Shown in pieces: positions 253-48,657 of a stretch of DNA of 64,000 bases. The stretch is from Amphiscolops sp. MND2022 (taxonomy: Eukaryota). The stretch spans positions 16,618,001 to 16,682,000 of the forward strand of contig OZ076409.1 of assembly GCA_964187785.1 (NCBI GenBank), given 5' to 3'. Numbering within the stretch: position 1 is the stretch's first letter; every line of letters starts with the position of its first letter. The notes under the pieces were generated by a model. The model saw only the letters and a list, made by a program, of their open reading frames with translations, made no database searches and was not told the DNA's origin. Both the position numbers and the translations under genes were made by a program.

Positions 253-257
253 GTCAG

Positions 258-5684: not shown

Positions 5685-5797
5685 CAAGCTAGTCTGCACT
5701 AACTTAAAAGTTACGCGTATTTTGACCGAGAAAATTTTCGTATCATTGTACGTAATTTTGTTGTTAAGCATATAAAGCTATTGATTTTACAATGATC

Positions 5798-5916: not shown

Positions 5917-6492
5917 TTTTTGTCAGAAATGTGGTTTAACTTCGGTGACAGTTTTGCAAAAGGGGTCAAATTGAAAAGATAGCAAAAAACGGACAACGCC
6001 ATTAGAAAGAGCGTCCAAAAAAACCCCCATGCTGAAATTTTCGCCGCCATCACTTGAATTTTCATTGAGTTATGTCATTTTTACTATTTTCACAAAATGT
6101 GGTTTAACTTCGGTGACAGTTTTGCAAAAGGGGTCAAAATGAACAGATAGCAAAAAACGGACAACGGCATTGGAAAGAGGGCCCAAAATTACCCCTAAAA
6201 CGTGTTTTTCACACTCCTGAGTCGACTTTTGATAATACATGGAATTTCATTTTTAAGCTTACTAATTTATGCTTTTCAGCATACATTTTCGTAATAGAGT
6301 CAAAATTTTGCTTTCTCACAATTTTTCTGGAATATTTTTGTTTCATCAGATGTCAATAACTTGAAACGTCGTCTTTTCATGAGAATTTCTCCTCAAAACA
6401 AGTTGTTGGCTGGTAATGGTAAGTCCGTACCGCAGATAGGAGTCTCGCGCTCCAAAAATTGACTCTTTGCTTTTAGCCTAATTGTTGTGATA

Positions 6493-9024
6493 GAGAAAGT
6501 GAAAGAAATACTAGAAACATCTAAAGTCGCATCCGAAAAATTTGGGAACATTGTGTCTTGTCATGATATCTTTAAAGCGAAAACAAGAGATCAACTAAAA
6601 TACCTTAGTGCTACAAGCAAAAAGATGCTAGTGAAACAAAAAGAAAAAATTCAGATGGATATTGAAAAACTTGAAGAAAATTGTTCTAAGGGAAATTGTT
6701 CTGACCAACAGATCAAACAGAACTTAGAGCACCTGACATGCCTCAAAAATAATCTTCAATTGATCAAAAATGAAGAATCTGAAAATTCATTTCAACAAAT
6801 CAAAAACTTCTTTAGGGAAGCCAATGATGGAAACACAAAAAATATCAAATGCTTAGCGAAAGCCTCAAGCTTAGCTAAGGATATCAAAAAGATTGAAAAA
6901 CAAGATGGATCATTCACAGAAGATCCTGACGAAATTTTAAATGAATTCAAATCTTTTTATGAGAAATTTAGCCAACCAAAATGGAAACCAACAGAAACAT
7001 CCTCGAAATCTCAGGATAAATTCATTGAAAAGTTTTTTAAACAAAAAAGGAAAAGCATTGAAAACATTGAACAATTGTTCAAAGAAACGTTGGAGGACCC
7101 CGACAACGAAATCACAGTATATGAAGTTGAAAAAGCTATCTCTAAACTGAACTCAAACAGTGCTCCTGGATCCGATGGACTTACAAGTCAATTATACCAA
7201 AACCACAAAAACTTTTTTGCCCCGTATCTTTCAAATCTATTTAATAAAATCAATGAAAATGGAGAAGTTCCGGACTCATTTAAACATGCAATCATCAAAG
7301 TAATTCCTAAGAAAAATAATTCACTGAAGGTATCCGAATTTCGGCCAATTAGTCTCATTAATACGGATCAAAAAATTCTTTCTCATGTTCTAGCAGAAAG
7401 ACTCAAACCTATTTTATCAGTATTAATTGGTAATCATCAAAACGCTCATTTACCAAATAGAAATATACATATTGCCATACAAAAAATTCAGCATTACGCC
7501 CATGAAACTACTCGTAGTCAATCACTTATCGCTATTGACTTCAGTAAAGCTTTCGACTGTGTAGAGCGTAGCTTTTTACAAAAACTGATTGAAAAATGTC
7601 CAATCGATAAGTTTACTCAAGAAATGATTTTACTTACGTACAAGGATACTTATGCTTTCATTGGAATGAAAAATGGAATTTCCACAAAATTCAAAATAGA
7701 TAGAGGGGTGAGACAAGGCTGTCCTCTCTCAGCATTGATTTTCAATATTTGTCTTGAACCTCTTCTACAAAGAATTCAAAAATCAAAATACATAAAATCA
7801 AAACAACAAACAAAATGTATTGCCTACGCAGATGATATAACGATCAGCCTCTACAACAAATCTCTTCGGAAGCTATTGATTATTCTGGATCATTTTCACG
7901 AAATAGCAGGCTTAGAAGTTAATTTAGCCAAAACTGAAATCCTTTCGAAAGCGGACAAATTATTTGTATCGGAAAAACTAACAAGAGTTACCACAACAAA
8001 AATTCTTGGAGTTTACATTTCGCTGAATAAAACTCTCAAAAAAGAAACCAAGAACGCAATAACGAATGCTTTTAACTCAACAGAAAAGTTCATACTAAAA
8101 AATAGTTCGTTCCGTGCGAGAGCTAGAAATATTGAGACTTTTATCTACTCGAAATTAATTCATCATCTGAGACACGAAAATTTGTATAAAAAATTTCTTC
8201 GAAAAGTTCAATCGAAAATAATAGATGTTTTCTGGCTGTACAAAAAACACAATGTTAAAAAAAAAATTCTTGAGCTACCAATTGAAGAGGGCGGAGTAAA
8301 CCTCAAGAACTTCTCCAAATACTACCTAACTGCCAAGATTATGAACTTGAAGTTCCTAGCGGTTAACCCAAAGGAGAGAAAATACATACAAGAATTAAAG
8401 AAATCAAAATTTTTTTCAGAATTAGAAAAACACTTCGAAAAACAACACATTGAAATCCTAGAACTGAACCCAGAAGAACTTATAATCCAACATCATTTCA
8501 CTACGCTTAATATAACAAAAGAGACAACTTCGAAAGAAATTTATACTTTTTTGAACAACTCCTCAATAAACGTCCCACCGCCTCTAAAAACTGAAGTTAC
8601 TGCAACAAAACAAAATATAGCACCCGAAATTTTGAACTCAGTTACAAAGAACATCTGGAAAAACAAAAAACTCACTTCGTTTGATAAAAACTATCTTTAC
8701 TGCTTCCTAATGAATTCGTATCTAGATAAACAAGACAAGTGGCTTAAAAATCTTGTTCTCCAACCACTATGTTTCGCATGTGAAGCAGAATTTGAAACAT
8801 GGGACCATTTAATGTTTTCTTGTAAAAATTTGAAAACGTTAACATTGAAGTTGAACGTTTTTTCATGGAAGGAAATATGGCTTGATCGAAGTTGTCTCTC
8901 TCAAAAACTCCTTGTAGCAATAATGCTCTCGTCGTGGACAGAATCAATTGGAGACTACTTAAAATATTTTCTGGAACGTATGAAAGTAATACTAATACCA
9001 GTTGCAAATCTATCTGATAATTGA
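6493..9024 (+). CDS. Partial ORF2 (RT plus C-terminal CCHC zinc finger), N-terminally truncated but uninterrupted
   Basis: APGSDG, RPISLIN, IDFSKAFD, GVRQGCPLS, YADD, CFACEAEFETWDHLMFSC; begins just after the point where the EN domain ends in family B. Confidence 0.92.
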   Translation, partial: EKVKEILETSKVASEKFGNIVSCHDIFKAKTRDQLKYLSATSKKMLVKQKEKIQMDIEKLEENCSKGNCSDQQIKQNLEHLTCLKNNLQLIKNEESENSFQQIKNFFREANDGNTKNIKCLAKASSLAKDIKKIEKQDGSFTEDPDEILNEFKSFYEKFSQPKWKPTETSSKSQDKFIEKFFKQKRKSIENIEQLFKETLEDPDNEITVYEVEKAISKLNSNSAPGSDGLTSQLYQNHKNFFAPYLSNLFNKINENGEVPDSFKHAIIKVIPKKNNSLKVSEFRPISLINTDQKILSHVLAERLKPILSVLIGNHQNAHLPNRNIHIAIQKIQHYAHETTRSQSLIAIDFSKAFDCVERSFLQKLIEKCPIDKFTQEMILLTYKDTYAFIGMKNGISTKFKIDRGVRQGCPLSALIFNICLEPLLQRIQKSKYIKSKQQTKCIAYADDITISLYNKSLRKLLIILDHFHEIAGLEVNLAKTEILSKADKLFVSEKLTRVTTTKILGVYISLNKTLKKETKNAITNAFNSTEKFILKNSSFRARARNIETFIYSKLIHHLRHENLYKKFLRKVQSKIIDVFWLYKKHNVKKKILELPIEEGGVNLKNFSKYYLTAKIMNLKFLAVNPKERKYIQELKKSKFFSELEKHFEKQHIEILELNPEELIIQHHFTTLNITKETTSKEIYTFLNNSSINVPPPLKTEVTATKQNIAPEILNSVTKNIWKNKKLTSFDKNYLYCFLMNSYLDKQDKWLKNLVLQPLCFACEAEFETWDHLMFSCKNLKTLTLKLNVFSWKEIWLDRSCLSQKLLVAIMLSSWTESIGDYLKYFLERMKVILIPVANLSDN

Positions 9025-9115
9025 TGATATGATGCAATTCTGATCTAATGAATTCCAGATTGATCTTTTGTAAAAAAAAGTGTTGATATTATTCATGATT
9101 AATTGAATTTTTGAA
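6493..9115 (+). mobile_element. Family A non-LTR retrotransposon (L1/Tx1-like), 5'-truncated, in SL exon
   Basis: 18-bp TSD AGCCTAATTGTTGTGATA (6475-6492, 9116-9133); carries an RT reading frame lacking the endonuclease. Confidence 0.93.
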
Positions 9116-9116
9116 A

Positions 9117-9230
9117 GCCTAATTGTTGTGATAAACTTATTAAATAGGTAAGTATTCCCACCCTATTGATAAGTTTTATTTGAAAGCAGACTGCGAAAGT
9201 GGTCTCCTGCCCAATTTTTCGAACAAGGAA
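9117..9230 (+). ncRNA. SL RNA sequence regenerated downstream of insertion (separated from its upstream spacer)
   Basis: TSD restores the full exon; carries some substitutions in stem II and the Sm site. Confidence 0.55.
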
Positions 9231-9343
9231 CAAGCTAGTCTGCACTAACTTAAAAGTTACGCGTATTTTGACCGAGAAAATTTTCGAATCATTGTACGTA
9301 ATTTTGTTGTTAAGCATATAAAGCTATTGATTTTACAATGATC

Positions 9344-9462
9344 GGCTACGACCATACCATGTTGAATGCACCGGTTCTCGTCCGATCACCGAAGTTAAAC
9401 AACATAGGGCCTGGTTAGTACTTGGATGGGAGACCGCTTGGGAACACCAGGTGTTGTAGCCT
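9344..9462 (+). rRNA. 5S rRNA
   Basis: Copy of 129-247. Confidence 0.98.
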
Positions 9463-10021
9463 TTTTTGTCAGAAATGTGGTTTAACTTCGGTGACAGTTT
9501 TGCAAAAGGGGTCAAATTGAAAAGATAGCAAAAAACGGACAACGCCATTAGAAAGAGCGTCCAAAAAAACCCCCATGCTGAAATTTTCGCCGCCATCACT
9601 TGAATTTTCATTGAGTTATGTCATTTTTACTATTTTCACAAAATGTGGTTTAACTTCGGTGACAGTTTTGCAAAAGGGGTCAAAATGAACAGATAGCAAA
9701 AAACGGACAACGGCATTGGAAAGAGGGCCCAAAATTACCCCTAAAACGTGTTTTTCACACTCCTGAGTCGACTTTTGATAATACATGGAATTTCATTTTT
9801 AAGCTTACTAATTTATGCTTTTCAGCATACATTTTCGTAATAGAGTCAAAATTTTGCTTTCTCACAATTTTTCTGGAATATTTTTGTTTCATCAGATGTC
9901 AATAACTTGAAACGTCGTCTTTTCATGAGAATTTCTCCTCAAAACAAGTTGTTGGCTGGTAATGGTAAGTCCGTACCGCAGATAGGAGTCTCGCGCTCCA
10001 AAAATTGACTCTTTGCTTTTA

Positions 10022-10135
10022 GCCTAATTGTTGTGATAAACTTAATAAATAGGTAAGTATTCCAACCCTATTGATAAGTTTTATTTGAAAGCAGACTGCG
10101 AAAGTGGTCTGCTGCCCAATTTTTTGAACAAGGAA
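10022..10135 (+). ncRNA. Putative SL RNA, uninterrupted (one exon substitution)
   Basis: Copy of 807-920 with CTTAATAAATAG. Confidence 0.8.
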
Positions 10136-10248
10136 CAAGCTAGTCTGCACTAACTTAAAAGTTACGCGTATTTTGACCGAGAAAATTTTCGTATCATTGT
10201 ACGTAATTTTGTTGTTAAGCATATAAAGCTATTGATTTTACAATGATC

Positions 10249-10367
10249 GGCTACGACCATACCATGTTGAATGCACCGGTTCTCGTCCGATCACCGAAGT
10301 TAAACAACATAGGGCCTGGTTAGTACTTGGATGGGAGACCGCTTGGGAACACCAGGTGTTGTAGCCT
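10249..10367 (+). rRNA. 5S rRNA
   Basis: Copy of 129-247. Confidence 0.98.
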
Positions 10368-10926
10368 TTTTTGTCAGAAATGTGGTTTAACTTCGGTGAC
10401 AGTTTTGCAAAAGGGGTCAAATTGAAAAGATAGCAAAAAACGGACAACGCCATTAGAAAGAGCGTCCAAAAAAACCCCCATGCTGAAATTTTCGCCGCCA
10501 TCACTTGAATTTTCATTGAGTTATGTCATTTTTACTATTTTCACAAAATGTGGTTTAACTTCGGTGACAGTTTTGCAAAAGGGGTCAAAATGAACAGATA
10601 GCAAAAAACGGACAACGGCATTGGAAAGAGGGCCCAAAATTACCCCTAAAACGTGTTTTTCACACTCCTGAGTCGACTTTTGATAATACATGGAATTTCA
10701 TTTTTAAGCTTACTAATTTATGCTTTTCAGCATACATTTTCGTAATAGAGTCAAAATTTTGCTTTCTCACAATTTTTCTGGAATATTTTTGTTTCATCAG
10801 ATGTCAATAACTTGAAACGTCGTCTTTTCATGAGAATTTCTCCTCAAAACAAGTTGTTGGCTGGTAATGGTAAGTCCGTACCGCAGATAGGAGTCTCGCG
10901 CTCCAAAAATTGACTCTTTGCTTTTA

Positions 10927-11040
10927 GCCTAATTGTTGTGATAAACTTATTAAATAGGTAAGTATTCCAACCCTATTGATAAGTTTTATTTGAAAGCAGA
11001 CTGCGAAAGTGGTCTGCTGCCCAATTTTTTGAACAAGGAA
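10927..11040 (+). ncRNA. Putative SL RNA, uninterrupted
   Basis: Copy of 807-920. Confidence 0.85.
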
Positions 11041-11153
11041 CAAGCTAGTCTGCAGTAACTTAAAAGTTACGCGTATTTTGACCGAGAAAATTTTCGTATC
11101 ATTGTACGTAATTTTGTTGTTAAGCATATAAAGCTATTGATTTTACAATGATC

Positions 11154-11272
11154 GGCTACGACCATACCATGTTGAATGCACCGGTTCTCGTCCGATCACC
11201 GAAGTTAAACAACATAGGGCCTGGTTAGTACTTGGATGGGAGACCGCTTGGGAACACCAGGTGTTGTAGCCT
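11154..11272 (+). rRNA. 5S rRNA
   Basis: Copy of 129-247. Confidence 0.98.
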
Positions 11273-11831
11273 TTTTTGTCAGAAATGTGGTTTAACTTCG
11301 GTGACAGTTTTGCAAAAGGGGTCAAATTGAAAAGATAGCAAAAAACGGACAACGCCATTAGAAAGAGCGTCCAAAAAAACCCCCATGCTGAAATTTTCGC
11401 CGCCATCACTTGAATTTTCATTGAGTTATGTCATTTTTACTATTTTCACAAAATGTGGTTTAACTTCGGTGACAGTTTTGCAAAAGGGGTCAAAATGAAC
11501 AGATAGCAAAAAACGGACAACGGCATTGGAAAGAGGGCCCAAAATTACCCCTAAAACGTGTTTTTCACACTCCTGAGTCGACTTTTGATAATACATGGAA
11601 TTTCATTTTTAAGCTTACTAATTTATGCTTTTCAGCATACATTTTCGTAATAGAGTCAAAATTTTGCTTTCTCACAATTTTTCTGGAATATTTTTGTTTC
11701 ATCAGATGTCAATAACTTGAAACGTCGTCTTTTCATGAGAATTTCTCCTCAAAACAAGTTGTTGGCTGGTAATGGTAAGTCCGTACCGCAGATAGGAGTC
11801 TCGCGCTCCAAAAATTGACTCTTTGCTTTTA

Positions 11832-11945
11832 GCCTAATTGTTGTGATAAACTTATTAAATAGGTAAGTATTCCAACCCTATTGATAAGTTTTATTTGAAA
11901 GCAGACTGCGAAAGTGGTCTGCTGCCCAATTTTTTGAACAAGGAA
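11832..11945 (+). ncRNA. Putative SL RNA, uninterrupted
   Basis: Copy of 807-920. Confidence 0.85.
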
Positions 11946-12058
11946 CAAGCTAGTCTGCACTAACTTAAAAGTTACGCGTATTTTGACCGAGAAAATTTTC
12001 GTATCATTGTACGTAATTTTGTTGTTAAGCATATAAAGCTATTGATTTTACAATGATC

Positions 12059-12177
12059 GGCTACGACCATACCATGTTGAATGCACCGGTTCTCGTCCGA
12101 TCACCGAAGTTAAACAACATAGGGCCTGGTTAGTACTTGGATGGGAGACCGCTTGGGAACACCAGGTGTTGTAGCCT
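12059..12177 (+). rRNA. 5S rRNA
   Basis: Copy of 129-247. Confidence 0.98.
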
Positions 12178-12736
12178 TTTTTGTCAGAAATGTGGTTTAA
12201 CTTCGGTGACAGTTTTGCAAAAGGGGTCAAATTGAAAAGATAGCAAAAAACGGACAACGTCATTAGAAAGAGCGTCCAAAAAAACCCCCATGCTGAAATT
12301 TTCGCCGCCATCACTTGAATTTTCATTGAGTTATGTCATTTTTACTATTTTCACAAAATGTGGTTTAACTTCGGTGACAGTTTTGCAAAAGGGGTCAAAA
12401 TGAACAGATAGCAAAAAACGGACAACGGCATTGGAAAGAGGGCCCAAAATTACCCCTAAAACGTGTTTTTCACACTCCTGAGTCGACTTTTGATAATACA
12501 TGGAATTTCATTTTTAAGCTTACTAATTTATGCTTTTCAGCATACATTTTCGTAATAGAGTCAAAATTTTGCTTTCTCACAATTTTTCTGGAATATTTTT
12601 GTTTCATCAGATGTCAATAACTTGAAACGTCGTCTTTTCATGAGAATTTCTCCTCAAAACAAGTTGTTGGCTGGTAATGGTAAGTCCGTACCGCAGATAG
12701 GAGTCTCGCGCTCCAAAAATTGACTCTTTGCTTTTA

Positions 12737-12850
12737 GCCTAATTGTTGTGATAAACTTATTAAATAGGTAAGTATTCCAACCCTATTGATAAGTTTTATT
12801 TGAAAGCAGACTGCGAAAGTGGTCTGCTGCCCAATTTTTTGAACAAGGAA
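12737..12850 (+). ncRNA. Putative SL RNA, uninterrupted
   Basis: Copy of 807-920. Confidence 0.85.
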
Positions 12851-12963
12851 CAAGCTAGTCTGCACTAACTTAAAAGTTACGCGTATTTTGACCGAGAAAA
12901 TTTTCGTATCATTGTACGTAATTTTGTTGTTAAGCATATAAAGCTATTGATTTTACAATGATC

Positions 12964-13082
12964 GGCTACGACCATACCATGTTGAATGCACCGGTTCTCG
13001 TCCGATCACCGAAGTTAAACAACATAGGGCCTGGTTAGTACTTGGATGGGAGACCGCTTGGGAACACCAGGTGTTGTAGCCT
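12964..13082 (+). rRNA. 5S rRNA
   Basis: Copy of 129-247. Confidence 0.98.
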
Positions 13083-13678
13083 TTTTTGTCAGAAATGTGG
13101 TTTAACTTCGGTGACAGTTTTGCAAAAGGGGTCAAATTGAAAAGATAGCAAAAAACGGACAACGCCATTAGAAAGAGCGTCCAAAAAAACCCCCATGCTG
13201 AAATTTTCGCCGCCATCACTTGAATTTTCATTGAGTTATGTCATTTTTACTATTTTCACAAAATGTGGTTTAACTTCGGTGACAGTTTTGCAAAAGGGGT
13301 CAAAATGAACAGATAGCAAAAAACGGACAACGGCATTGGAAAGAGGGCCCAAAATTACCCCTAAAACGTGTTTTTCACACTCCTGAGTCTAATACATGGA
13401 ATTTCATTTTTAAGCTTACTAATTTATGCTTTTCAGCATACATTTTCGTAATAGAGTCAAAATTTTGCTTTCTCACAATTTTTCTGGAATATTTTTGTTT
13501 CATCAGATGTCAATAACTTGAAACGTCGTCTTTTCATGAGAATTTCTCCTCAAAACAAGTTGTTGGCTGGTAATGGTAAGTCCGTACCGCAGATAGGAGT
13601 CTCGCGCTCCAAAAATTGACTCTTTGCTTTTAGCCTAATTGTTGTGATAAACTTATTAAATAGGTAAGTATTCCAACC

Positions 13679-13791
13679 TCGGAATATTTCTTGCCTGTTT
13701 GAGGTGTTAATCACACATACTTATCAATAGGGCCCAAAAGCCAGTAACCAAAAACCAGTAACCAATAACCAACCTGTACTTACTGTTTGAA
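13679..13791 (+). mobile_element. 113-bp mini-element at the SL splice donor (variant 2)
   Basis: 17-bp duplication 13662-13678 / 13792-13808; nearly identical to 3677-3789. Confidence 0.8.
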
Positions 13792-13989
13792 AGGTAAGTA
13801 TTCCAACCCTATTGATAAGTTTTATTTGAAAGCAGACTGCGAAAGTGGTCTGCTGCCCATTTTTTTGAACAAGGAACAAGCTAGTCTGCACTAACTTAAA
13901 AGTTACGCGTATTTTGACCGAGAAAATTTTCGTATCATTGTACGTAATTTTGTTGTTAAGCATATAAAGCTATTGATTTTACAATGATC

Positions 13990-14108
13990 GGCTACGACCA
14001 TACCATGTTGAATGCACCGGTTCTCGTCCGATCACCGAAGTTAAACAACATAGGGCCTGGTTAGTACTTGGATGGGAGACCGCTTGGGAACACCAGGTGT
14101 TGTAGCCT
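13990..14108 (+). rRNA. 5S rRNA
   Basis: Copy of 129-247. Confidence 0.98.
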
Positions 14109-14667
14109 TTTTTGTCAGAAATGTGGTTTAACTTCGGTGACAGTTTTGCAAAAGGGGTCAAATTGAAAAGATAGCAAAAAACGGACAACGCCATTAGAAA
14201 GAGCGTCCAAAAAAACCCCCATGCTGAAATTTTCGCCGCCATCACTTGAATTTTCATTGAGTTATGTCATTTTTACTATTTTCACAAAATGTGGTTTAAC
14301 TTCGGTGACAGTTTTGCAAAAGGGGTCAAAATGAACAGATAGCAAAAAACGGACAACGGCATTGGAAAGAGGGCCCAAAATTACCCCTAAAACGTGTTTT
14401 TCACACTCCTGAGTCGACTTTTGATAATACATGGAATTTCATTTTTAAGCTTACTAATTTATGCTTTTCAGCATACATTTTCGTAATAGAGTCAAAATTT
14501 TGCTTTCTCACAATTTTTCTGGAATATTTTTGTTTCATCAGATGTCAATAACTTGAAACGTCGTCTTTTCATGAGAATTTCTCCTCAAAACAAGTTGTTG
14601 GCTGGTAATGGTAAGTCCGTACCGCAGATAGGAGTCTCGCGCTCCAAAAATTGACTCTTTGCTTTTA

Positions 14668-14781
14668 GCCTAATTGTTGTGATAAACTTATTAAATAGGT
14701 AAGTATTCCAACCCTATTGATAAGTTTTATTTGAAAGCAGACTGCGAAAGTGGTCTGCTGCCCATTTTTTTGAACAAGGAA
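14668..14781 (+). ncRNA. Putative SL RNA, last uninterrupted copy
   Basis: Copy of 807-920 (Sm site ATTTTTTTGA). Confidence 0.83.
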
Positions 14782-14894
14782 CAAGCTAGTCTGCACTAAC
14801 TTAAAAGTTACGCGTATTTTGACCGAGAAAATTTTCGTATCATTGTACGTAATTTTGTTGTTAAGCATATAAAGCTATTGATTTTACAATGATC

Positions 14895-15013
14895 GGCTAC
14901 GACCATACCATGTTGAATGCACCGGTTCTCGTCCGATCACCGAAGTTAAACAACATAGGGCCTGGTTAGTACTTGGATGGGAGACCGCTTGGGAACACCA
15001 GGTGTTGTAGCCT
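14895..15013 (+). rRNA. 5S rRNA
   Basis: Copy of 129-247. Confidence 0.98.
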
Positions 15014-15589
15014 TTTTTGTCAGAAATGTGGTTTAACTTCGGTGACAGTTTTGCAAAAGGGGTCAAATTGAAAAGATAGCAAAAAACGGACAACGCCATT
15101 AGAAAGAGCGTCCAAAAAAACCCCCATGCTGAAATTTTCGCCGCCATCACTTGAATTTTCATTGAGTTATGTCATTTTTACTATTTTCACAAAATGTGGT
15201 TTAACTTCGGTGACAGTTTTGCAAAAGGGGTCAAAATGAACAGATAGCAAAAAACGGACAACGGCATTGGAAAGAGGGCCCAAAATTACCCCTAAAACGT
15301 GTTTTTCACACTCCTGAGTCGACTTTTGATAATACATGGAATTTCATTTTTAAGCTTACTAATTTATGCTTTTCAGCATACATTTTCGTAATAGAGTCAA
15401 AATTTTGCTTTCTCACAATTTTTCTGGAATATTTTTGTTTCATCAGATGTCAATAACTTGAAACGTCGTCTTTTCATGAGAATTTCTCCTCAAAACAAGT
15501 TGTTGGCTGGTAATGGTAAGTCCGTACCGCAGATAGGAGTCTCGCGCTCCAAAAATTGACTCTTTGCTTTTAGCCTAATTGTTGTGATA

Positions 15590-39017: not shown

Positions 39018-39136
39018 GGCTACGACCATACCATGTTGAATGCACCGGTTCTCGTCCGATCACCGAAGTTAAACAACATAGGGCCTGGTTAGTACTTGGA
39101 TGGGAGACCGCTTGGGAACACCAGGTGTTGTAGCCT
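39018..39136 (+). rRNA. 5S rRNA
   Basis: Copy of 129-247. Confidence 0.98.
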
Positions 39137-39712
39137 TTTTTGTCAGAAATGTGGTTTAACTTCGGTGACAGTTTTGCAAAAGGGGTCAAATTGAAAAGAT
39201 AGCAAAAAACGGACAACGCCATTAGAAAGAGCGTCCAAAAAAACCCCCATGCTGAAATTTTCGCCGCCATCACTTGAATTTTCATTGAGTTATGTCATTT
39301 TTACTATTTTCACAAAATGTGGTTTAACTTCGGTGACAGTTTTGCAAAAGGGGTCAAAATGAACAGATAGCAAAAAACGGACAACGGCATTGGAAATAGG
39401 GCCCAAAATTACCCCTAAAACGTGTTTTTCACACTCCTGAGTCGACTTTTGATAATACATGGAATTTCATTTTTAAGCTTACTAATTTATGCTTTTCAGC
39501 ATACATTTTCGTAATAGAGTCAAAATTTTGCTTTCTCACAATTTTTCTGGAATATTTTTGTTTCATCAGATGTCAATAACTTGAAACATCGTCTTTTCAT
39601 GAGAATTTCTCCTCAAAACAAGTTGTTGGCTGGTAATGGTAAGTCCGTACCGCAGATAGGAGTCTCGCGCTCCAAAAATTGACTCTTTGCTTTTAGCCTA
39701 ATTGTTGTGATA

Positions 39713-41697
39713 TACGGCGTTACTCTGTCAGCCTGCAAACTTTGTTTGCACAGCGCCATCTTGCAAATTTTGCAGCAAAAGTTGCAAAAGTAATGACTAA
39801 TTTGAACACGAGTGAGCTTGATCAACATCATAATGAAAATGTTGAGCAAAATTGTTACAAAAATGCAGTTATTTCCTTGTCGAAATCGAACTCAAATATG
39901 GACAAATTACCAATTATTATCAACTTTGCCTTACCACTGACATCTGAAATGTTCAAAAACAGCAAATTACTGGATTCAATGTTTGTGGAAGCTGTTATGG
40001 CCGTCAAAAACCGACTTAACTCCAATGAAATTACCATCTTCAAAACTACAATTTTACGAAACAAAGGCAATTTGAAGTGTATTACTGTGATCATTCCTTA
40101 CAAACTTGAAAATGCAGCTTCCTCTCTTATTCACGAGGGCATTACTCTTCGCAATCGGAAAATACGGCCTTATTCTGTCAATTATTCCAACCCGAACAAC
40201 AATGTCTATCCAAAAAGATTACCAATATCTTTCCGAAACCTACCACACTTTCTGACGGATGAGGATATTTTGAGTAGCTGTGGTCTTCAAAACTTCAAAT
40301 TTAGTAGCAAAATTTTTCATCAACAACGACGACTTCCTGATAGCAGCCTTTTTTATACAGGAGAGGCAAGAATTACAGTTTTAATTGACAATGAGAATGA
40401 GGAAAGTTTACTACAAAACTGGGCCAATAATGCATATGACAAAATGTTTAGTTCCAGTGGCATTTTTTTCAAATGTTGCTGTATCCCACTCCTCGAATGC
40501 TCTTTATGCGTCAATGAGAACCTTCCCAGTGCTCATCAACAATCAAGATGCCCAAAACAACTATCAGACGAACAGCAAATACAGAAAAACAGTGAATCTC
40601 AGAACCAGAAGTTAACAAATGACTATGTTATGGAAACTGCAGAAACAGAGCCAATGTCTAATGAACCTGAACTGTCAGATTCAGATGATGCTGAACCAAT
40701 CTCAAAGGCGCCAAAGCAGACCGATGATGGTACTGAAACCGAATGCAATAACAACGTGGCAGAAACTGAACAACCATGCATTAACAACTCAAAGAAAGAT
40801 ACCCATCCTATGCAAAAACCTGTACTAATGCATCGCTCAACTGAATGGAAATCCTCAACAGACCTTGCCCGAAATCAAGCAGATGACCAACAGTCAACGG
40901 CAAAGCATGGATATCATGAATACCCATTCTTTTTGGAAAAGAAACAAAACAAAATACTGGCACCCGAAACTATTTTCAACGAAATACCTCCTATAAAAGA
41001 ACATGTGATCAAAACCCAACAAACTTCTGGTTACATCAATACACTAGACAAGGAAAAGAAAATTCAAAGGACCTTTTCACTCGTACAACCACTGAAGAAA
41101 GAAAAACTCGAAGATCTTTTATCTGAATCAAACTGGAAACATTCTGACTCTAACACTATTTTAACTTCTCTTTATGAATTTTACCAATTAATCCGGAAGT
41201 TTGATCCATTCTATGATGCTACAAACCACCAAATTTATACTATTAATCTGGAGAATAAAATTGTACAAGTTTTCACTGCAGTTGAAAACTTATACAATGA
41301 AAACAAAAACTAAACTGAAAAATTTCGGACCTTTTTGACTGCAACTTTAAAGTTCTAAATCTCTACAATACCATCATCAATCAACCCAATTCCCAATTCT
41401 TTTCGAGCACTAGTTGTTCGCAACCTGTATGCAAAAAACGGGTTTTGAAAACAAACTCCTTCCAGGAGCAAACATCTTTTTTTCATAAATTCTCCAAACT
41501 ACATTATACTAACTTCATACCTAAAAAAAAAACATTCCCATTTTGGCGCTTTCTCAAAAATGCCATAACCAAGCATCTTCATCTACATACTTCAGCTTTT
41601 TCAACACTTCAGTTACTCATATACTCATTTTATACCTATACCTTAGACTTCATTACTTTTTACTTGTAAATTCTCAGTTATTAATATAGTCTTCAAA
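39713..41697 (+). mobile_element. Family C element, copy C5 (2 extra nt at 5' junction)
   Basis: TSD 39695-39712 / 41698-41715; junction GTGATA-TA-CGGCG. Confidence 0.9.
39793..41313 (+). CDS. Family C ORF1-like protein, 506 aa, intact
   Basis: Near-identical to 15668-17188. Confidence 0.85.
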   Translation: MTNLNTSELDQHHNENVEQNCYKNAVISLSKSNSNMDKLPIIINFALPLTSEMFKNSKLLDSMFVEAVMAVKNRLNSNEITIFKTTILRNKGNLKCITVIIPYKLENAASSLIHEGITLRNRKIRPYSVNYSNPNNNVYPKRLPISFRNLPHFLTDEDILSSCGLQNFKFSSKIFHQQRRLPDSSLFYTGEARITVLIDNENEESLLQNWANNAYDKMFSSSGIFFKCCCIPLLECSLCVNENLPSAHQQSRCPKQLSDEQQIQKNSESQNQKLTNDYVMETAETEPMSNEPELSDSDDAEPISKAPKQTDDGTETECNNNVAETEQPCINNSKKDTHPMQKPVLMHRSTEWKSSTDLARNQADDQQSTAKHGYHEYPFFLEKKQNKILAPETIFNEIPPIKEHVIKTQQTSGYINTLDKEKKIQRTFSLVQPLKKEKLEDLLSESNWKHSDSNTILTSLYEFYQLIRKFDPFYDATNHQIYTINLENKIVQVFTAVENLYNENKN

Positions 41698-41925
41698 AGC
41701 CTAATTGTTGTGATAAACTTATTAAATAGGTAAGTATTCCAACCCTATTGATAAGTTTTATTTGAAAGCAGACTGCGAAAGTGGTCTGCTGCCCAATTTT
41801 TTGAACAAGGAACAAGCTAGTCTGCACTAACTTAAAAGTTACGCGTATTTTGACCGAGAAAATTTTCGTATCATTGTACGTAATTTTGTTGTTAAGCATA
41901 TAAAGCTATTGATTTTACAATGATC

Positions 41926-42044
41926 GGCTACGACCATACCATGTTGAATGCACCGGTTCTCGTCCGATCACCGAAGTTAAACAACATAGGGCCTGGTTAG
42001 TACTTGGATGGGAGACCGCTTGGGAACACCAGGTGTTGTAGCCT
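41926..42044 (+). rRNA. 5S rRNA
   Basis: Copy of 129-247. Confidence 0.98.
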
Positions 42045-42619
42045 TTTTTGTCAGAAATGTGGTTTAACTTCGGTGACAGTTTTGCAAAAGGGGTCAAATT
42101 GAAAAGATAGCAAAAACGGACAACGCCATTAGAAAGAGCGTCCAAAAAAACCCCCATGCTGAAATTTTCGCCGCCATCACTTGAATTTTCATTGAGTTAT
42201 GTCATTTTTACTATTTTCACAAAATGTGGTTTAACTTCGGTGACAGTTTTGCAAAAGGGGTCAAAATGAACAGATAGCAAAAAACGGACAACGGCATTGG
42301 AAAGAGGGCCCAAAATTACCCCTAAAACGTGTTTTTCACACTCCTGAGTCGACTTTTGATAATACATGGAATTTCATTTTTAAGCTTACTAATTTATGCT
42401 TTTCAGCATACATTTTCGTAATAGAGTCAAAATTTTGCTTTCTCACAATTTTTCTGGAATATTTTTGTTTCATCAGATGTCAATAACTTGAAATGTCGTC
42501 TTTTCATGAGAATTTCTCCTCAAAACAAGTTGTTGGCTGGTAATGGTAAGTCCGTACCGCAGATAGGAGTCTCGCGCTCCAAAAATTGACTCTTTGCTTT
42601 TAGCCTAATTGTTGTGATA

Positions 42620-44241
42620 CTGCGTGTGTCAGCGATTATTTGCTAACTCTACTCTCACTGCTGCGGCAGAGAAGACGAAAATTACCTGAACAATGCCTTT
42701 ATTGACAGCAGAATTCATCATTCCTTACACAAGAGAAGAAATTACCAGCCCAAGCATAAAGCAAGCTGTTTACAAAGAATTCCTTTGCAAGCTTTTACAT
42801 GCTTTTTCGCCTACTCATATTGACAGCGTGACATGCATTAAATCGTACGTGTCCAAACATGCGCCAGCGCATGAGCATGAAAAGAAGCTTGAATGCATCA
42901 AAATTATTGCTCCAAACTTGATAGAAAACGATTTCAAAAACCTACTTCTTAAAGGAATTCCTTACAAAAACCGGATAATTTATGCATTCCAAAACAGTGA
43001 TGTTTATTCTAACTCCTACCCAAAGCAATTCACTTTGAAATTCCGCAATTTATCACACTTTTTAGAAGATGGAGAGATTGTGGAGGCTTGTAATCTGCAA
43101 GAGTACAAAATTTCCAAATTACGCCACCAAAGAGTAAGAATTTCTGACGACATCGAAGCCTTTACTGGAATCTGTTATGCTGAAATAGAGATTGCCAATC
43201 AATGCCAATTAGAAAACATCAAATCATGGAACCAACAAGCCTTTTTGAACCAGTTTGTTACTAATGAAATTCCCTTCAAATGTTACATTCAAACCTTGTT
43301 ACAATGTGAGAATTGTAACGAAGGAAAACGCCAATTTATGGGCCATCATAAGAAGCAATGCAAACATCACTCTACACAAAAAAACAATCTTAGCAATGAA
43401 GATACTGTGCCAATACCTTCTGAGGAGGAGGAGGAGTCAGCTGATGAACCTGAAAACAAAGCCACGAAAGTGGATCCCGATTTTGCTTTTTTACCGTTTT
43501 ACCTCGATGTGGACAACGAAATTATTCAGGCTGTCAACAGAATGGAATCAAAATATCCTAAACTAGCAGAATGTGATCACAAAGGAGGTGATATCAACAT
43601 CATTAACGATAAAAAAGTTGTTGTTAACCAACTAAGATATGTCCAAAAACTATCGGAATCAGCACAACAAGAGATGTTTGAAGACAAAGAGTGGAGAAGC
43701 CGAACCTCCTCTTCAAAGATCGCCAACTACGATGCCTTCAAATACATCAAAGGAAGACTGGATGCCTTCTTTTATAAACCCGAGAACATCATTTATTTAG
43801 TAAATCTCCAAGGAAAAGTTAGATATGACTTTATCCCATTTGAAAAACAAGATTGATGCTATTTTTTGTAACAAACACAAATAACTCAAAACCCACTCCT
43901 TGATATGCTACACCCTCAAATCCCAAGTCTTTTAAAGTTCAATACCATGCTATTAAAATAGCCAAAAAACAGTTTGATCCAATAACTCCATCCAGGAGCA
44001 AACATCACTTTTACCCCACATACTCAAGACTACATTATACTAATTTCTTCAAAAAAAAACAACGTTCTTTTTTGCTTGAACTTTCAAACAAGCTTCCATT
44101 TTTCACTCAGTACTTTTTCATACTCTTATACAGTACTCTGTACAACTTTTATACCGTTTATATCTTTTATACAATTTATACTTAGACTTACTATAAAGAC
44201 TATTTGATTTATACAATAAAAGGTCCAATACAATCTTTAAA
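42620..44241 (+). mobile_element. Family D ORF1-only non-autonomous retroelement, copy D1 (1622 bp), in SL exon
   Basis: 18-bp TSD 42602-42619 / 44242-44259; single ORF, no RT. Confidence 0.9.
42693..43856 (+). CDS. Family D ORF1-like protein, 387 aa (RRM-like, CCHC, C-terminal domain shared with family C)
   Basis: YPKQFTLKFRNL, FTGICYAEI, CENCNEGKRQFMGHHKKQC, PFYLD...IYLVNLQGKV. Confidence 0.85.
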   Translation: MPLLTAEFIIPYTREEITSPSIKQAVYKEFLCKLLHAFSPTHIDSVTCIKSYVSKHAPAHEHEKKLECIKIIAPNLIENDFKNLLLKGIPYKNRIIYAFQNSDVYSNSYPKQFTLKFRNLSHFLEDGEIVEACNLQEYKISKLRHQRVRISDDIEAFTGICYAEIEIANQCQLENIKSWNQQAFLNQFVTNEIPFKCYIQTLLQCENCNEGKRQFMGHHKKQCKHHSTQKNNLSNEDTVPIPSEEEEESADEPENKATKVDPDFAFLPFYLDVDNEIIQAVNRMESKYPKLAECDHKGGDINIINDKKVVVNQLRYVQKLSESAQQEMFEDKEWRSRTSSSKIANYDAFKYIKGRLDAFFYKPENIIYLVNLQGKVRYDFIPFEKQD

Positions 44242-44469
44242 AGCCTAATTGTTGTGATAAACTTATTAAATAGGTAAGTATTCCAACCCTATTGATAAGT
44301 TTTATTTGAAAGCAGACTGCGAAAGTGGTCTGCTGCCCAATTTTTTGAACAAGGAACAAGCTAGTCTGCACTAACTTAAAAGTTACGCGTATTTTGACCG
44401 AGAAAATTTTCGTATCATTGTACGTAATTTTGTTGTTAAGCATATAAAGCTATTGATTTTACAATGATC

Positions 44470-44588
44470 GGCTACGACCATACCATGTTGAATGCACCGG
44501 TTCTCGTCCGATCACCGAAGTTAAACAACATAGGGCCTGGTTAGTACTTGGATGGGAGACCGCTTGGGAACACCAGGTGTTGTAGCCT
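44470..44588 (+). rRNA. 5S rRNA
   Basis: Copy of 129-247. Confidence 0.98.
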
Positions 44589-45164
44589 TTTTTGTCAGAA
44601 ATGTGGTTTAACTTCGGTGACAGTTTTGCAAAAGGGGTCAAATTGAAAAGATAGCAAAAAACGGACAACGCCATTAGAAAGAACGTCCAAAAAAACCCCC
44701 ATGCTGAAATTTTCGCCGCCATCACTTGAATTTTCATTGAGTTATGTCATTTTTACTATTTTCACAAAATGTGGTTTAACTTCGGTGACAGTTTTGCAAA
44801 AGGGGTCAAAATGAACAGATAGCAAAAAACGGACAACGGCATTGGAAAGAGGGCCCAAAATTACCCCTAAAACGTGTTTTTCACACTCCTGAGTCGACTT
44901 TTGATAATACATGGAATTTCATTTTTAAGCTTACTAATTTATGCTTTTCAGCATACATTTTCGTAATAGAGTCAAAATTTTGCTTTCTCACAATTTTTCT
45001 GGAATATTTTTGTTTCATCAGATGTCAATAACTTGAAACGTCGTCTTTTCATGAGAATTTCTCCTCAAAACAAGTTGTTGGCTGGTAATGGTAAGTCCGT
45101 ACCGCAGATAGGAGTCTCGCGCTCCAAAAATTGACTCTTTGCTTTTAGCCTAATTGTTGTGATA

Positions 45165-47147
45165 CGGCGTCACTCTGTCAGCCTGCAAACTTTGTTTGCA
45201 CAGCGCCATCTTGCAAATTTTGCAGCAAAAGTTGCAAAAGTAATGACTAATTTGAACACGAGTGAGCTTGATCAACATCATAATGAAAATGTTGAGCAAA
45301 ATTGTTACAAAAATGCAGTTATTTCCTTGTCGAAATCGAACTCAAATATGGACAAATTACCAATTATTATCAACTTTGCCTTACCACTGACATCTGAAAT
45401 GTTCAAAAACAGCAAATTACTGGATTCAATGTTTGTGGAAGCTGTTATGGCCGTCAAAAACCGACTTAACTCCAATGAAATTACCATCTTCAAAACTACA
45501 ATTTTACGCAACAAAGGCAATTTGAAGTGTATTACTGTGATCATTCCTTACAAACTTGAAAATGCAGCTTCCTCTCTTATTCACGAGGGCATTACTCTTC
45601 GCAATCGGAAAATACGGCCTTATTCTGTCAATTATTCCAACCCGAACAACAATGTCTATCCAAAAAGATTACCAATATCTTTCCGAAACCTACCACACTT
45701 TCTGACGGATGAGGATATTTTGAGTAGCTGTGGTCTTCAAAACTTCAAATTTAGTAGCAAAATTTTTCATCAACAACGACGACTTCCTGATAGCAGCCTT
45801 TTTTATACAGGAGAGGCAAGAATTACAGTTTTAATTGACAATGAGAATGAGGAAAGTTTACTACAAAACTGGGCCAATAATGCATATGACAAAATGTTTA
45901 GTTCCAGTGGCATTTTTTTCAAATGTTGCTGTATCCCACTCCTCGAATGTTCTTTATGCGTCAATGAGAACCTTCCCAGTGCTCATCAACAATCAAGATG
46001 CCCAAAACAACTATCAGACGAACAGCAAATACAGAAAAACAGTGAATCTCAGAACCAGAAGTTAACAACTGACTACGTTATGGAAACTGCAGAAACAGAG
46101 CCAATGTCTAATGAACCTGAACTGTCAGATTCAGATGATGCTGAACCAATCTCAAAGGCGCCAAAGCAGACCGATGATGGTACTGAAACCGAATGCAATA
46201 ACAACGTGGCAGAAACTGAACAACCATGCATTAACAACTCAAAGAAAGATAACATTCCTATGCAAAAACCTGAACTAATGCATCGCTCAACTGAATGGAA
46301 ATCCTCAACAGACCTTGCCCGAAATCAAGCAGATGACCAACAGTCAACGGCAAAGCATGGATATCATGAATACCCATTCTTTTTGGAAAAGAAACAAAAC
46401 AAAATACTGGCACCCGAAACTATTTTCAACGAAATACCTCCTATAAAAGAACATGTGATCAAAACCCAACAAACTTCTGGCTACATCAATACACTAGACA
46501 AGGAAAAGAAAATTCAAAGGACCTTTTCACTCGTACAACCACTGAAGAAAGAAAAACTCGAAGATCTTTTATCTGAATCAAACTGGAAACATTCTGACTC
46601 TAACACTATTTTAACTTCTCTTTATGAATTTTACTCATTGATCCGGAAGTTTGATCCATTCTATGATGCTACAAACCACCAAATTTACACTATTAATCTG
46701 CAGAATAAAAGTGTACAAGTTTTCACTGCAGTTGAAAACTTATACAATGAAAACAAAAACTAAACTGAAAAATTTCGGACCTTTTTGACTGGAACTTTAA
46801 AGTTCTAAATCTCTACAATACCATCATCAATCAACCCAATTCCCAATTCTTTTCGAGCACTAGTTGTTCGCAACCTGTATGCAAAAAACGGGTTTTGAGA
46901 ACAAACTCCTTCCAGGAGCAAACATCTTTTTTTCATACATTCTCCAAAATACATTATACTAACTTCATACCAAAAAAAAAAACATTCCCATTTTGGCGCT
47001 TTCTCAAAAATGCCATAACCAAGCATCTTCATCTACATACTTCTGCTTTTTCAACACTTCAGTTACTCATATACTCATTTTATACATATACCTTAGACTT
47101 CATTACTTTTTACTTGTAAATTCTCAGTTATTAGTATAGTCTTCAAA
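45165..47147 (+). mobile_element. Family C element, copy C6
   Basis: TSD 45147-45164 / 47148-47165. Confidence 0.9.
45243..46763 (+). CDS. Family C ORF1-like protein, 506 aa, intact
   Basis: Near-identical to 15668-17188. Confidence 0.85.
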   Translation: MTNLNTSELDQHHNENVEQNCYKNAVISLSKSNSNMDKLPIIINFALPLTSEMFKNSKLLDSMFVEAVMAVKNRLNSNEITIFKTTILRNKGNLKCITVIIPYKLENAASSLIHEGITLRNRKIRPYSVNYSNPNNNVYPKRLPISFRNLPHFLTDEDILSSCGLQNFKFSSKIFHQQRRLPDSSLFYTGEARITVLIDNENEESLLQNWANNAYDKMFSSSGIFFKCCCIPLLECSLCVNENLPSAHQQSRCPKQLSDEQQIQKNSESQNQKLTTDYVMETAETEPMSNEPELSDSDDAEPISKAPKQTDDGTETECNNNVAETEQPCINNSKKDNIPMQKPELMHRSTEWKSSTDLARNQADDQQSTAKHGYHEYPFFLEKKQNKILAPETIFNEIPPIKEHVIKTQQTSGYINTLDKEKKIQRTFSLVQPLKKEKLEDLLSESNWKHSDSNTILTSLYEFYSLIRKFDPFYDATNHQIYTINLQNKSVQVFTAVENLYNENKN

Positions 47148-47375
47148 AGCCTAATTGTTGTGATAAACTTATTAAATAGGTAAGTATTCCAACCCTATTG
47201 ATAAGTTTTATTTGAAAGCAGACTGCGAAAGTGGTCTGCTGCCCAATTTTTTGAACAAGGAACAAGCTAGTCTGCACTAACTTAAAAGTTACGCGTATTT
47301 TGACCGAGAAAATTTTCGTATCATTGTACGTAATTTTGTTGTTAAGCATATAAAGCTATTGATTTTACAATGATC

Positions 47376-47494
47376 GGCTACGACCATACCATGTTGAATG
47401 CACCGGTTCTCGTCCGATCACCGAAGGTAAACAACATAGGGCCTGGTTAGTACTTGGATGGGAGACCGCTTGGGAACACCAGGTGTTGTAGCCT
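47376..47494 (+). rRNA. 5S rRNA (A-box substitution)
   Basis: CCGAAGGTAAAC instead of CCGAAGTTAAAC. Confidence 0.92.
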
Positions 47495-48070
47495 TTTTTG
47501 TCAGAAATGTGGTTTAACTTCGGTGACAGTTTTGCAAAAGGGGTCAAATTGAAAAGATAGCAAAAAACGGACAACGCCATTAGAAAGAGCGTCCAAAAAA
47601 ACCCCCATGCTGAAATTTTCGCCGCCATCACTTGAATTTTCATTGAGTTATGTCATTTTTACTATTTTCACAAAATGTGGTTTAACTTCGGTGACAGTTT
47701 TGCAAAAGGGGTCAAAATGAACAGATAGCAAAAAACGGACAATGGCATTGGAAAGAGGGCCCAAAATTACCCCTAAAACGTGTTTTTCACACTCCTGAGT
47801 CGACTCTTGATAATACATGGAATTTCATTTTTAAGCTTACTAATTTATGCTTTTCAGCATACATTTTCGTAATAGAGTCAAAATTTTGCTTTCTCACAAT
47901 TTTTCTGGAATATTTTTGTTTCATCAGATGTCAATAACTTGAAACGTCGTCTTTTCATGAGAATTTCCCCTCAAAACAAGTTGTTGGCTGGTAATGGTAA
48001 GTCCGTACCGCAGATAGGAGTCTCGCGCTCCAAAAATTGACTCTTTGCTTTTAGCCTAATTGTTGTGATA

Positions 48071-48657
48071 CTGCGTGTGTCAGCGATTATTTGCTAACTC
48101 TACTCTCACTGCTGCGGCAGAGAAGACGAAAATTACCTGAACAATGCCTTTATTGACAGCAGAATTCATCATTCCTTACACAAAAGAAGAAATTACCAGC
48201 CCAAACATAAAGCAAGCTGTTTACAAAGAATTCCTTTGCAAGCTTTTACATGCTTTATCGCCTACTCATATTGACAGCGTGACATGCATTAAATCGTACG
48301 TGTCCAAACATGCGCCAGCGCATGAGCATGAAAAGAAGCTTGAATGCATCAAAATTATTGCTCCAAACTCGATAGAAAACGACTTCAAAAACCTACTTCT
48401 CAAAGGAATTCCTTACAAAAACCGGATAATTTATGCATTCCAAAACAGTGATGTTTATTCTAACTCCTACCCAAAGCAATTCACTTTGAAATTCCGCAAT
48501 TTACCACACTTTTTAGAAGATGGAGAGATTGTGGAGGCTTGTAATCTGCAAGAGTACAAAATTTCCAAATTACGCCACCAAAGAGTAAGAATTTCTGACG
48601 ACATCGAAGCCTTTACTGGAATCTGTTATGCTGAAATAGAGATTGCCAATCAATGCC
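48071..48657 (+). mobile_element. Family D element, copy D2, cut by the assembly gap (ORF starts 48144)
   Basis: Same 5' junction as D1 after AGCCTAATTGTTGTGATA (48053-48070); a few substitutions versus D1. Confidence 0.88.

Follow-up and report, generated by a model that had tools for sequence, protein, structure and literature searches.

The 64,000-nucleotide stretch of Amphiscolops sp. MND2022 DNA analysed here (assembly GCA_964187785.1, contig OZ076409.1, positions 16,618,001 to 16,682,000 of the forward strand; hereafter the window) contains part of an acoel's tandem array of 5S rRNA and spliced leader (SL) RNA genes, and this work deals with the retroelements that interrupt the SL genes of that array. 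The array occupies positions 1..48657 (plus strand) and is made of units with a basic spacing of 905 bp, each bearing one gene for SL RNA and one for 5S rRNA, as indicated by the unit sequence, the spacing of the 17-mer AGCCTAATTGTTGTGAT and 23 matches to the Rfam family 5S_rRNA (110-118 bits); no RNA family besides 5S was detected by the Rfam search of the window. The 17-mer occurs exactly 33 times, on the plus strand only and between positions 806 and 48069, against a mean of 0.01 in shuffled sequence. A short gene with the sequence AGCCTAATTGTTGTGATAAACTTATTAAATAG|GTAAGT is localised about 230 bp upstream of the 5S rRNA gene of each unit. In an intact example (806..837, plus strand) the exon has 32 nt (AGCC...AAATAG) and is followed by the GTAAGT donor and by the body of the SL RNA, which extends to about position 915.

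The exon is the same as the leader of another acoel, Symsagittifera roscoffensis, GCCTAATTGTTGTGATAAACTTATTAAATAGA, which was rebuilt from transcript 5' ends in the genome paper of that species, where 30% of the genes are reported to be trans-spliced (PMC9911081); a full-text literature search matched the leader to this paper and to no other work. The RNA is predicted to fold into two hairpins, the first containing the donor site and the second being strong, and it has an Sm-like site, AAUUUUUUG (z = -3.1); together with the leader match this shows that the target is a genuine SL RNA gene, as the initial annotation had proposed. The first base of the leader is the A of AGCC, because at 16 of 16 sampled dispersed loci bearing the SL exon the preceding DNA was heterogeneous up to that A, and only 43 exon copies with another base before GCC were found genome-wide, against 2357 copies of the 17-mer starting with A. 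These and all other genome searches were done in the assembly to which the window belongs (1.07 Gb, 1929 contigs). At the 16 sampled loci the exon, mostly complete, was fused to other sequence, often to repeat families starting with TTTCAG... or CTGCGG...; such loci look like retrocopies of trans-spliced RNAs, transposon RNAs included. Some units of the array measured 1014, 1035 or 896 bp instead of 905 (2616-4665 and 12736-14667), and an imperfect internal duplication of about 100 bp (358-458 vs 526-626, 91-92% identity) may be behind these variants. Single-base variants of the SL exon, AAACTTAATAAATAG and AAACTTATCAAATAG, were also seen (10038-10052 and 17589-17603), one of them in a promoter-less copy on the 3' side of a family C insert.

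There are 23 promoter-linked SL starts in the window, and at 11 of them foreign DNA is found where AAACTTATTAAATAG|GTAAGT should follow. Pairwise BLAST among the 11 inserts sorted them into four families (A, one copy; B, two; C, six; D, two), all in the SL sense orientation, thus reproducing the number, the classification and the orientation given by the initial annotation; its end coordinate, 48657, proved to be the border of an assembly gap (200 N, 48658-48857) and not a biological end. Family A is represented by a copy of 2624 bp (6492..9115, plus strand), a 5'-truncated autonomous long interspersed nuclear element (LINE) whose open reading frame (ORF; 6625-9024, 799 aa) encodes a reverse transcriptase (RT; Pfam RVT_1, 4.7e-34) and a C-terminal zinc-binding region, with no endonuclease part in this copy; its tail is ...TTGAATTTTTGAA, and it lies between a left 17-bp target duplication, SL nucleotides 1-17 (6475..6491, plus strand), and the right one at 9116-9132. 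The first copy of family B has 5624 bp (21403..27026, plus strand), with ORF1 at 22033-23580 (515 aa), ORF2, encoding an apurinic endonuclease (APE) and RT, at 23393-26245, and the C-terminal part of ORF2 in another frame at 26205-26882, so that the copy is frame-broken. The second one (33167..38789, plus strand, 5623 bp) is 99.7% identical to the first, has its ORFs broken by several stops and is placed inside a segmental duplicate of 11.77 kb. The tail of family B is ...CTCAGTTATTAATATAGTCTTCAAA.

The families C and D have a single ORF, homologous to ORF1, and are referred to below as half-LINEs. Five full-length copies of C were found on the plus strand (15589..17571, with its ORF of 506 aa at 15668-17188, and, by BLAST, 18494-20480, 30261-32244, 39712-41697 and 45164-47147), measuring 1983-1987 bp, with pairwise identities of 98.2-99.4% and the 506-aa ORF intact in all five. 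The sixth copy (27949..29338, plus strand, 1390 bp) lacks the first 592 bp, thus starting at C position 593, is joined to the SL gene at position 17/18 and coincides with the edge of the 11.77-kb duplicate; its 5' edge has no microhomology that could explain a deletion, and it is read as a 5'-truncated insertion, with a rearrangement as the alternative. Family D has a copy of 1623 bp (42619..44241, plus strand) with an ORF of 387 aa (42693-43856) and a second one of which only the first 588 bp are present (48070..48657, plus strand, 98.8% identical to the first over these 588 bp) before it is cut by the N run at 48658-48857. The tail of the family is ...CAATACAATCTTTAAA and the D end in the window ...AATCTTTAAA. 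None of the families has a poly(A) tail.

Each of the ten complete inserts is flanked on both sides by the exact 17-mer and followed by the rest of the SL gene, and an adjoining A extends the duplication to 18 nt for families A, C and D, in agreement with the duplication of 17-18 nt that had been described. The emphasis had earlier been placed on the left junction; what all the families share, however, is the 3' junction. All the elements, including those of a second array described below, end in ...AAA or ...GAA directly before AGCCTAATTG, and the 3' junction is invariably TTTT|AGCC, that is, SL nucleotide +1. In contrast, the 5' junction is variable: B, G and H join after 17 SL nucleotides, A, C and D after 17 or 18, and family E after 14 (four copies) or 11 (two copies). 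Copies of different lengths (A of 2624 and 4473 bp, C of 1390 bp and a 65-bp fragment) all meet the SL gene at 17/18. The nick with a defined position is the one at SL +1, not that at position 17/18.

Target duplication, 5' truncation and a fixed 3' end, the hallmarks of target-primed reverse transcription (TPRT), are all present, and they suggest the following sequence of events. The bottom strand would be nicked opposite TTTT|AGCC, between SL -1 and +1 (ambiguous by one A), and the specific 3' tail of the element would be copied from this nick; the top strand would be opened 17-18 bp downstream, with the consequent duplication of SL nucleotides 1-17/18. The outcome would be, in order, the SL promoter, a 17-nt SL stub, the element and a complete, promoter-less SL gene. 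Since all the inserts are in the SL sense, the SL promoter would transcribe the element from SL +1, and the transcripts would start with AGCCUAAUUGUUGUGAU followed by element sequence.

The initial annotation had assigned to family B an APE-type endonuclease and an RT with L1-like features. Residues 62-927 of B ORF2 aligned with the human L1 ORF2p across endonuclease, linker and RT in a search of the PDB (178 bits, E 1e-51), whereas R2 proteins scored at most 86 bits (E 1e-23) in the same search. Residues 62-300 aligned to the endonuclease part of L1 ORF2p, including N-G-L, Q-E-T, G-D-F-N, S-x-I-D and D-H, which we take to be the catalytic motifs of the L1 endonuclease. Ten of 13 ORF2 proteins of the clade to which B belongs matched Pfam Exo_endo_phos (PF03372; best 7e-10) and seven of 13 matched Exo_endo_phos_2 (PF14529); Pfam found in these ORF2s only RVT_1, EEP and zf-RVT, the last being a weak match in the C-terminal 225 aa, and no restriction-like endonuclease. 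Both the assignment and the proposal built on it were thus borne out: an L1-type APE and RT without a restriction-like endonuclease indicate an origin separate from that of CRE/SLACS/CZAR and NeSL, the SL-specific elements known so far.

Family A is 45% identical to B over 519 aa, and the window copy is a 5'-truncated member of a second autonomous family, of which a 4473-bp copy was found in the second array and copies with long open frames elsewhere. Uninterrupted frames also exist elsewhere in the genome and, together with the near-identical copies, suggest that these elements may be active. The autonomous members (A and B, and E, G and H of the neighbouring array) have an ORF1 with tandem RNA recognition motifs (RRMs) and a zinc knuckle, and an ORF2 with N-terminal APE, RT and a C-terminal Cys/His region.

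The single ORFs of C and D show homology to ORF1 of B (E 2e-16 and 1e-13, respectively) and 35% identical to each other (E 3e-25), and no RT or EEP match was obtained with Pfam for either one. They had been described as non-autonomous satellites; the lack of RT and endonuclease agrees with this, but they are not plain satellites because, like HAL1, they encode an ORF1 homologue. They are not short interspersed nuclear elements (SINEs) either, since a polymerase III small-RNA head is missing (Rfam found only 5S) and the ORFs are constrained. In the model of the C protein, residues 40-240 make up a confidently predicted core that forms a tandem RRM (Foldseek matches to HuR, Sxl and NONO, E 3e-5, probability 1.0), with a CxxC...H...C knuckle after it. 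An additional C-terminal domain of about 130 aa is found in C, D and D', the last a half-LINE of the second array (16790-17185 in C and 43476-43853 in D), and is absent from the ORF1s of the autonomous families; its model (pLDDT 75, pTM 0.70) gave no match to solved folds by Foldseek (best E 0.36). The 506-aa frame of C is kept in 19 of 25 full-length copies (five of the window and 20 of the second array), and variable sites amount to 44/1012 at codon positions 1-2, 37/506 at position 3 and 42/465 in the untranslated regions (Fisher p = 0.02 and 0.0007), showing that the ORF of C is constrained.

The half-LINEs share their 3' ends with autonomous families. The last 25 nt of C are exactly those of B (34 nt at 94%) in 16 copies, including all six of the window, and the other 28 copies have different last 20 nt, with the terminal 11 nt equal to the E tail. 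A copy of D in the second array, 98.8% identical to that of the window, ends with the last 40 nt of G. C with B and D with G thus share 3' ends, and the C variant shares with E only 11 nt. This exchange of tails between half-LINEs that are otherwise nearly identical is in keeping with a partner whose ORF2 protein recognises the 3' tail, by analogy with LINE/SINE pairs; C, D, D' and I would borrow the ORF2 protein of the autonomous family whose tail they carry, and the tails suggest which family mobilises which.

The second array lies in a 200-kb stretch located 390 kb upstream on the same contig, where 37 further element ends adjoin AGCCTAATTG. The families present there include G (about 5.95 kb, 66% aa identity to B), H (5.2 kb) and E (4.9 kb, ORF1 of 443 aa and ORF2 of 964 aa), as well as the ORF1-only elements D' and I (about 1.43 kb). 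Genome-wide, 342 promoter-linked SL starts were counted, of which 231 run uninterrupted, and at most 111 (32%) are interrupted or mutated within the 24 bases past the 23-mer.

A genome-wide tabulation of 3' junctions, which the initial annotation had proposed as a check, confirmed the site for two families and was less uniform for two others. The last 327 bp of B have seven near-identical copies in the genome, all seven with the SL exon next to them, and a 32-mer specific to C was found 44 times, with the SL start 20 nt later in every case (two with one SL substitution); the C copies were clustered on contigs C1, C12, C13 and C938. Sixteen of 18 E tails were in known array regions and two on small contigs. 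Exact tails of A were at an SL start in seven of 12 cases, and of ten near-identical H ends four were at intact SL starts and one was beside a rearranged SL. B and C are thus strict for the SL site, while A and H are relaxed. A relative of the B 3' end with 81% divergence (contig C13, about 13.864 Mb) had the same terminal ...ATAGTCTTCAAA, followed by AGCTTATACCATGG / AGCTTATACC and not by SL; it represents either a copy inserted off target or a sister family whose target is different.

Two of the off-target copies of H carry a piece of the SL. The copy on contig C3 starts with (G)CCTAATTGTTGTGAT, which corresponds to SL nucleotides 2/4-17, followed by the first bases of H; its target duplication has about 175 bp, and on either side of the nick the target (GTGCTTTC|GCCTG) is similar to the SL site (TTGCTTTT|AGCCT). 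The copy on contig C7 starts likewise with CCTAATTGTTGTGAT. An SL stub at the head of copies inserted outside SL genes implies that synthesis of the retrotransposed RNA began on an interrupted SL gene, at SL +1 or beside it, as capture of the SL promoter would predict. An off-target H copy on contig C7 (about 66.66 Mb) is fused at AGCCT inside a C-like element, at about its position 17, outside the SL arrays, and looks like a chimera formed by template switching on the AGCCT microhomology.

Taken together, it is very likely that a guild of related site-specific, L1-group retrotransposons without long terminal repeats, together with their half-LINEs, colonises the SL array by TPRT, with an endonuclease that would be specific for the SL site. 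Several observations weigh against this reading. The Pfam endonuclease match of B itself was below the threshold (18.4 vs 24.5 bits), and the B endonuclease region alone gave no phmmer match in the PDB at E <= 1; moreover, both B copies of the window are broken, by the frame change in one and the stops in the other. Five of 12 A tails are outside SL genes and five of ten H ends are elsewhere. Nine of 11 off-target 3' junctions start with AGCC (H, 5/5; K, 1/1; A, 3/5), and part of the specificity may come from annealing of the end of a read-through RNA and not from the endonuclease. The SL stub on off-target copies was seen in one family only (two copies), and the use of the SL promoter by the elements is put forward as probable. 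The assignment of E as a partner of C depends on a weak tail match of 11 nt. Finally, many copies come from duplication of the array, so the copy counts, and 44/44 among them, are inflated.

This last point is the starting place of a different explanation, namely that a few ancient insertions were multiplied, and their site kept uniform, by unequal crossing-over and gene conversion and not by ongoing targeted retrotransposition. Positions 16180..39712 (plus and minus strands not being distinguished for this feature) consist of two tandem copies of a block of 11.77 kb with a C 3' part, a unit, C, a unit, B and a unit, in which 16180-27949 duplicates 27948-39712 (99.45% over 11,773 columns), and 38775-43206 duplicates 44227-48657 over at least 4.4 kb (98.99%); the 11 copies of the window are, as a consequence, not 11 independent insertion events. 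The order of inserts is also repeated in the second array, where the lengths 1983, 1987, 1981 and 1984 bp occur twice, and the broken state of both B copies would suit old insertions. Yet at least 13 types of insert share one 3' junction (A in two lengths, B, G, H, E with two stubs, C full-length, C with 2 additional nt, C truncated, the 65-bp fragment, D with two tails, D' and I), arrays are spread over several small contigs and three or more large ones (C1, C12 and C13), the ORF of C is constrained, and the off-target copies with their own target duplication are real retrotransposition events. We therefore consider this explanation improbable, and independent targeting is secure in spite of the duplications.

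How the site is chosen is less clear-cut, since pairing of the 3' end of a read-through RNA (...AAA-AGCCU...) with the nicked target could do most of the selection, the endonuclease being weakly specific. The AGCC at off-target junctions and the H copy fused at AGCCT inside a C-like element, which is what template switching predicts, speak for this, as does the position of elements without poly(A) upstream of an SL exon that a read-through transcript would include. However, the single off-target site with both flanks read had GCC beforehand, and its upstream sequence GTGCTTTC resembles the SL flank TTGCTTTT; a likeness to the SL site on both sides of the nick points to protein recognition there. 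Against pairing, too, is the lack of off-target copies of the strict families B and C. Pairing and recognition by protein do not exclude each other, and pairing as the principal determinant seems to us rather unlikely, if a serious contender. The SL sequence at the 5' ends of the elements could also have been acquired by trans-splicing onto element RNA, as in the many SL-headed retrocopies of this genome. In that case a full 32-nt exon would be left at the element 5' ends, and it was never seen there: the stub has 11-18 nt, the SL promoter region CTCTTTGCTTTT directly adjoins it in 11 of 11 window cases, and each complete insert is followed by a second 17-mer and the rest of the SL gene. The junction sequences contradict the inserts being SL-headed retrocopies of trans-spliced RNA, and an origin of the stubs by trans-splicing is extremely improbable. 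Targeted insertion by TPRT thus remains the preferred reading.

The relatives of B ORF2 in protein databases form a clade at 31-66% identity, and five of them are the ORF2s of families described above (P0006, B; P0007, G; P0011, H; P0017, A; P0025, E). A tree of 48 rows (clade members of at least 740 aa, nine more distant relatives and four L1-named rows, shorter sequences being left out) was built by an IQ-TREE quick search under LG+G4 with SH-aLRT as the only support. The clade comprised 35 rows (support 100), a branch with support 100 split it from the rows named LINE-1 or LIN1, and all five SL-targeting ORF2s fell within a subclade of 19 rows (support 96). The nearest named relatives were LINE-1/LIN1 proteins, the Xenopus homologues were L1, and no protein named Tx1 was among the best 120 of 241 homologues; ten clusters that were also looked up bore no names. 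Of the two groups compared, L1 and R2, the RT is nearer to L1 by the PDB scores already given. A metagenome scan returned relatives with 22-36% identity only and no close member of the clade, and an Atlas search only generic EEP + RT clusters. The elements are filed under the L1 group (L1 plus Tx1) and no further.

Within the 19-row subclade, as sister to the E lineage (support 88), there is a LINE family, P0020, 41% identical to B ORF2. Its copies are in tandem, 9.2 kb apart (contig C4, about 81.10 Mb), and end in ...TTTAAA|GGCTAAGATCA, where GGCTAAGATCA corresponds to nucleotides 19-29 of the U2 small nuclear RNA (snRNA), so the insertion is at U2 nucleotide 18/19. One P0020 junction involves a 176-bp element with a U2 head that resembles the SINEU type (Rfam U2 40 bits, E 7e-6; gathering score 46). 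CTTTT|RGC(C)TAA is common to the U2 site (CCTTTT|GGCTAAGATCA) and to that of the SL gene (GCTTTT|AGCCTAATTG). The clade therefore inserts sequence-specifically into multicopy RNA genes, SL genes and, in this sister family, U2, as Tx1-type elements do. Keno is in U2, and U2-headed SINEs are mobilised by Tx1 elements, according to PMC4494074; by analogy with this behaviour at the U2 site, a Tx1 affinity of the clade is likely. More tentatively, and with somewhat less than an even chance in our estimation, SL targeting may have drifted from a U2-targeting, Keno-like ancestor, and a nick falling on the SL start would have given access to the SL promoter; a single array would then hold three levels: the SL/5S units of the host, five or more lineages of autonomous LINEs, and ORF1-only half-LINEs exchanging their 3' tails so as to change the ORF2 they exploit.

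The remainder of the window, from the 200-N scaffold gap to its end (48658-64000), bears no relation to the array; its minus strand encodes, at 61729-62409, a partial amiloride-sensitive sodium channel (Pfam ASC, E 5e-36).

SLACS inserts between nucleotides 11 and 12 of the SL exon, with a long duplication. The trypanosomatid CRE clade to which it belongs (CRE1/2, SLACS and CZAR) is similar to the acoel elements in that several families per array occupy a fixed position in SL RNA genes arranged in tandem, with the inserts oriented in the SL sense, but CRE elements, as described in PMC12278014, differ in their restriction-like endonuclease, their usually single ORF and their poly-A tail, as against the N-terminal APE, two ORFs and lack of poly(A) in the acoel. 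NeSL-1 of nematodes is likewise an SL-gene-specific animal LINE; according to PMC4640811, it is an element with a restriction-like endonuclease and a protease domain, related to Utopia, and its architecture is unrelated to that of the acoel elements. These thus share with CRE and NeSL the fixed-site insertion in SL genes and not the restriction-like endonuclease C-terminal to the RT. A further parallel is offered by the Tx1 clade (Tx1L, Keno and the 5S and U5 families), animal LINEs with APE and RT, sequence-specific in multicopy small-RNA genes or repeats, with an ORF1 of type I (RRM plus CCHC), which PMC5203782 gives as consistent with Tx1 in animals. The targets listed for Tx1 in PMC4494074 are U2, U5, 5S, satellites, transposons and microsatellites, and SL genes are not in that list; the acoel clade differs in having the SL gene as its target and, having been set beside L1-labelled rows only, is not labelled Tx1 here. 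As for HAL1, PMC5753468 describes a non-autonomous mammalian L1 derivative with ORF1p only and several origins. C, D, D' and I also keep only the ORF1 homologue; unlike HAL1, they are site-specific, have the extra C-terminal domain, are 25% identical to the ORF1s of their presumed partners and have alternative, partner-matching tails.

R1 and R2 coexist as lineages in rDNA and undergo co-transcription with the host gene; their 3' junction is precise. The same traits are attributed to Utopia in U2 arrays in PMC4640811. The acoel elements share them and differ from R1/R2 and Utopia in their target gene and in that their nick coincides with the start of host transcription, which means that the host promoter would be captured outright. 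Site-specific TPRT into a multicopy RNA gene, read-through from a host promoter and non-autonomous riders are well known. What is new is the pairing of an APE, L1-group element with SL genes, the nick exactly at the transcription start, the phylum, and the tail-switching ORF1-only riders. No APE-type LINE targeting SL genes, and no account of insertions into the SL genes of acoels, turned up in our full-text literature search, whose scope did not include Repbase Reports and Dfam, and a term search of the S. roscoffensis genome paper and its supplement returned no mention of SL-gene inserts.

Until now SL genes have been a target only for the early-branching CRE/SLACS/CZAR and NeSL, whose endonuclease is unrelated, so that the acoel guild represents a clean convergence on a 'safe' multicopy target and, in the literature searched, the first such case from Xenacoelomorpha. 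The site may serve as a system in which to test the single-site precision of an APE endonuclease and the pairing of RNA with its target, the capture of an snRNA-type polymerase II promoter by a LINE, and the choice and switching of partners by half-LINEs. In practice, with up to 111 of 342 promoter-linked SL genes interrupted or mutated, these insertions matter for the annotation of SL genes and of trans-splicing in acoel genomes.

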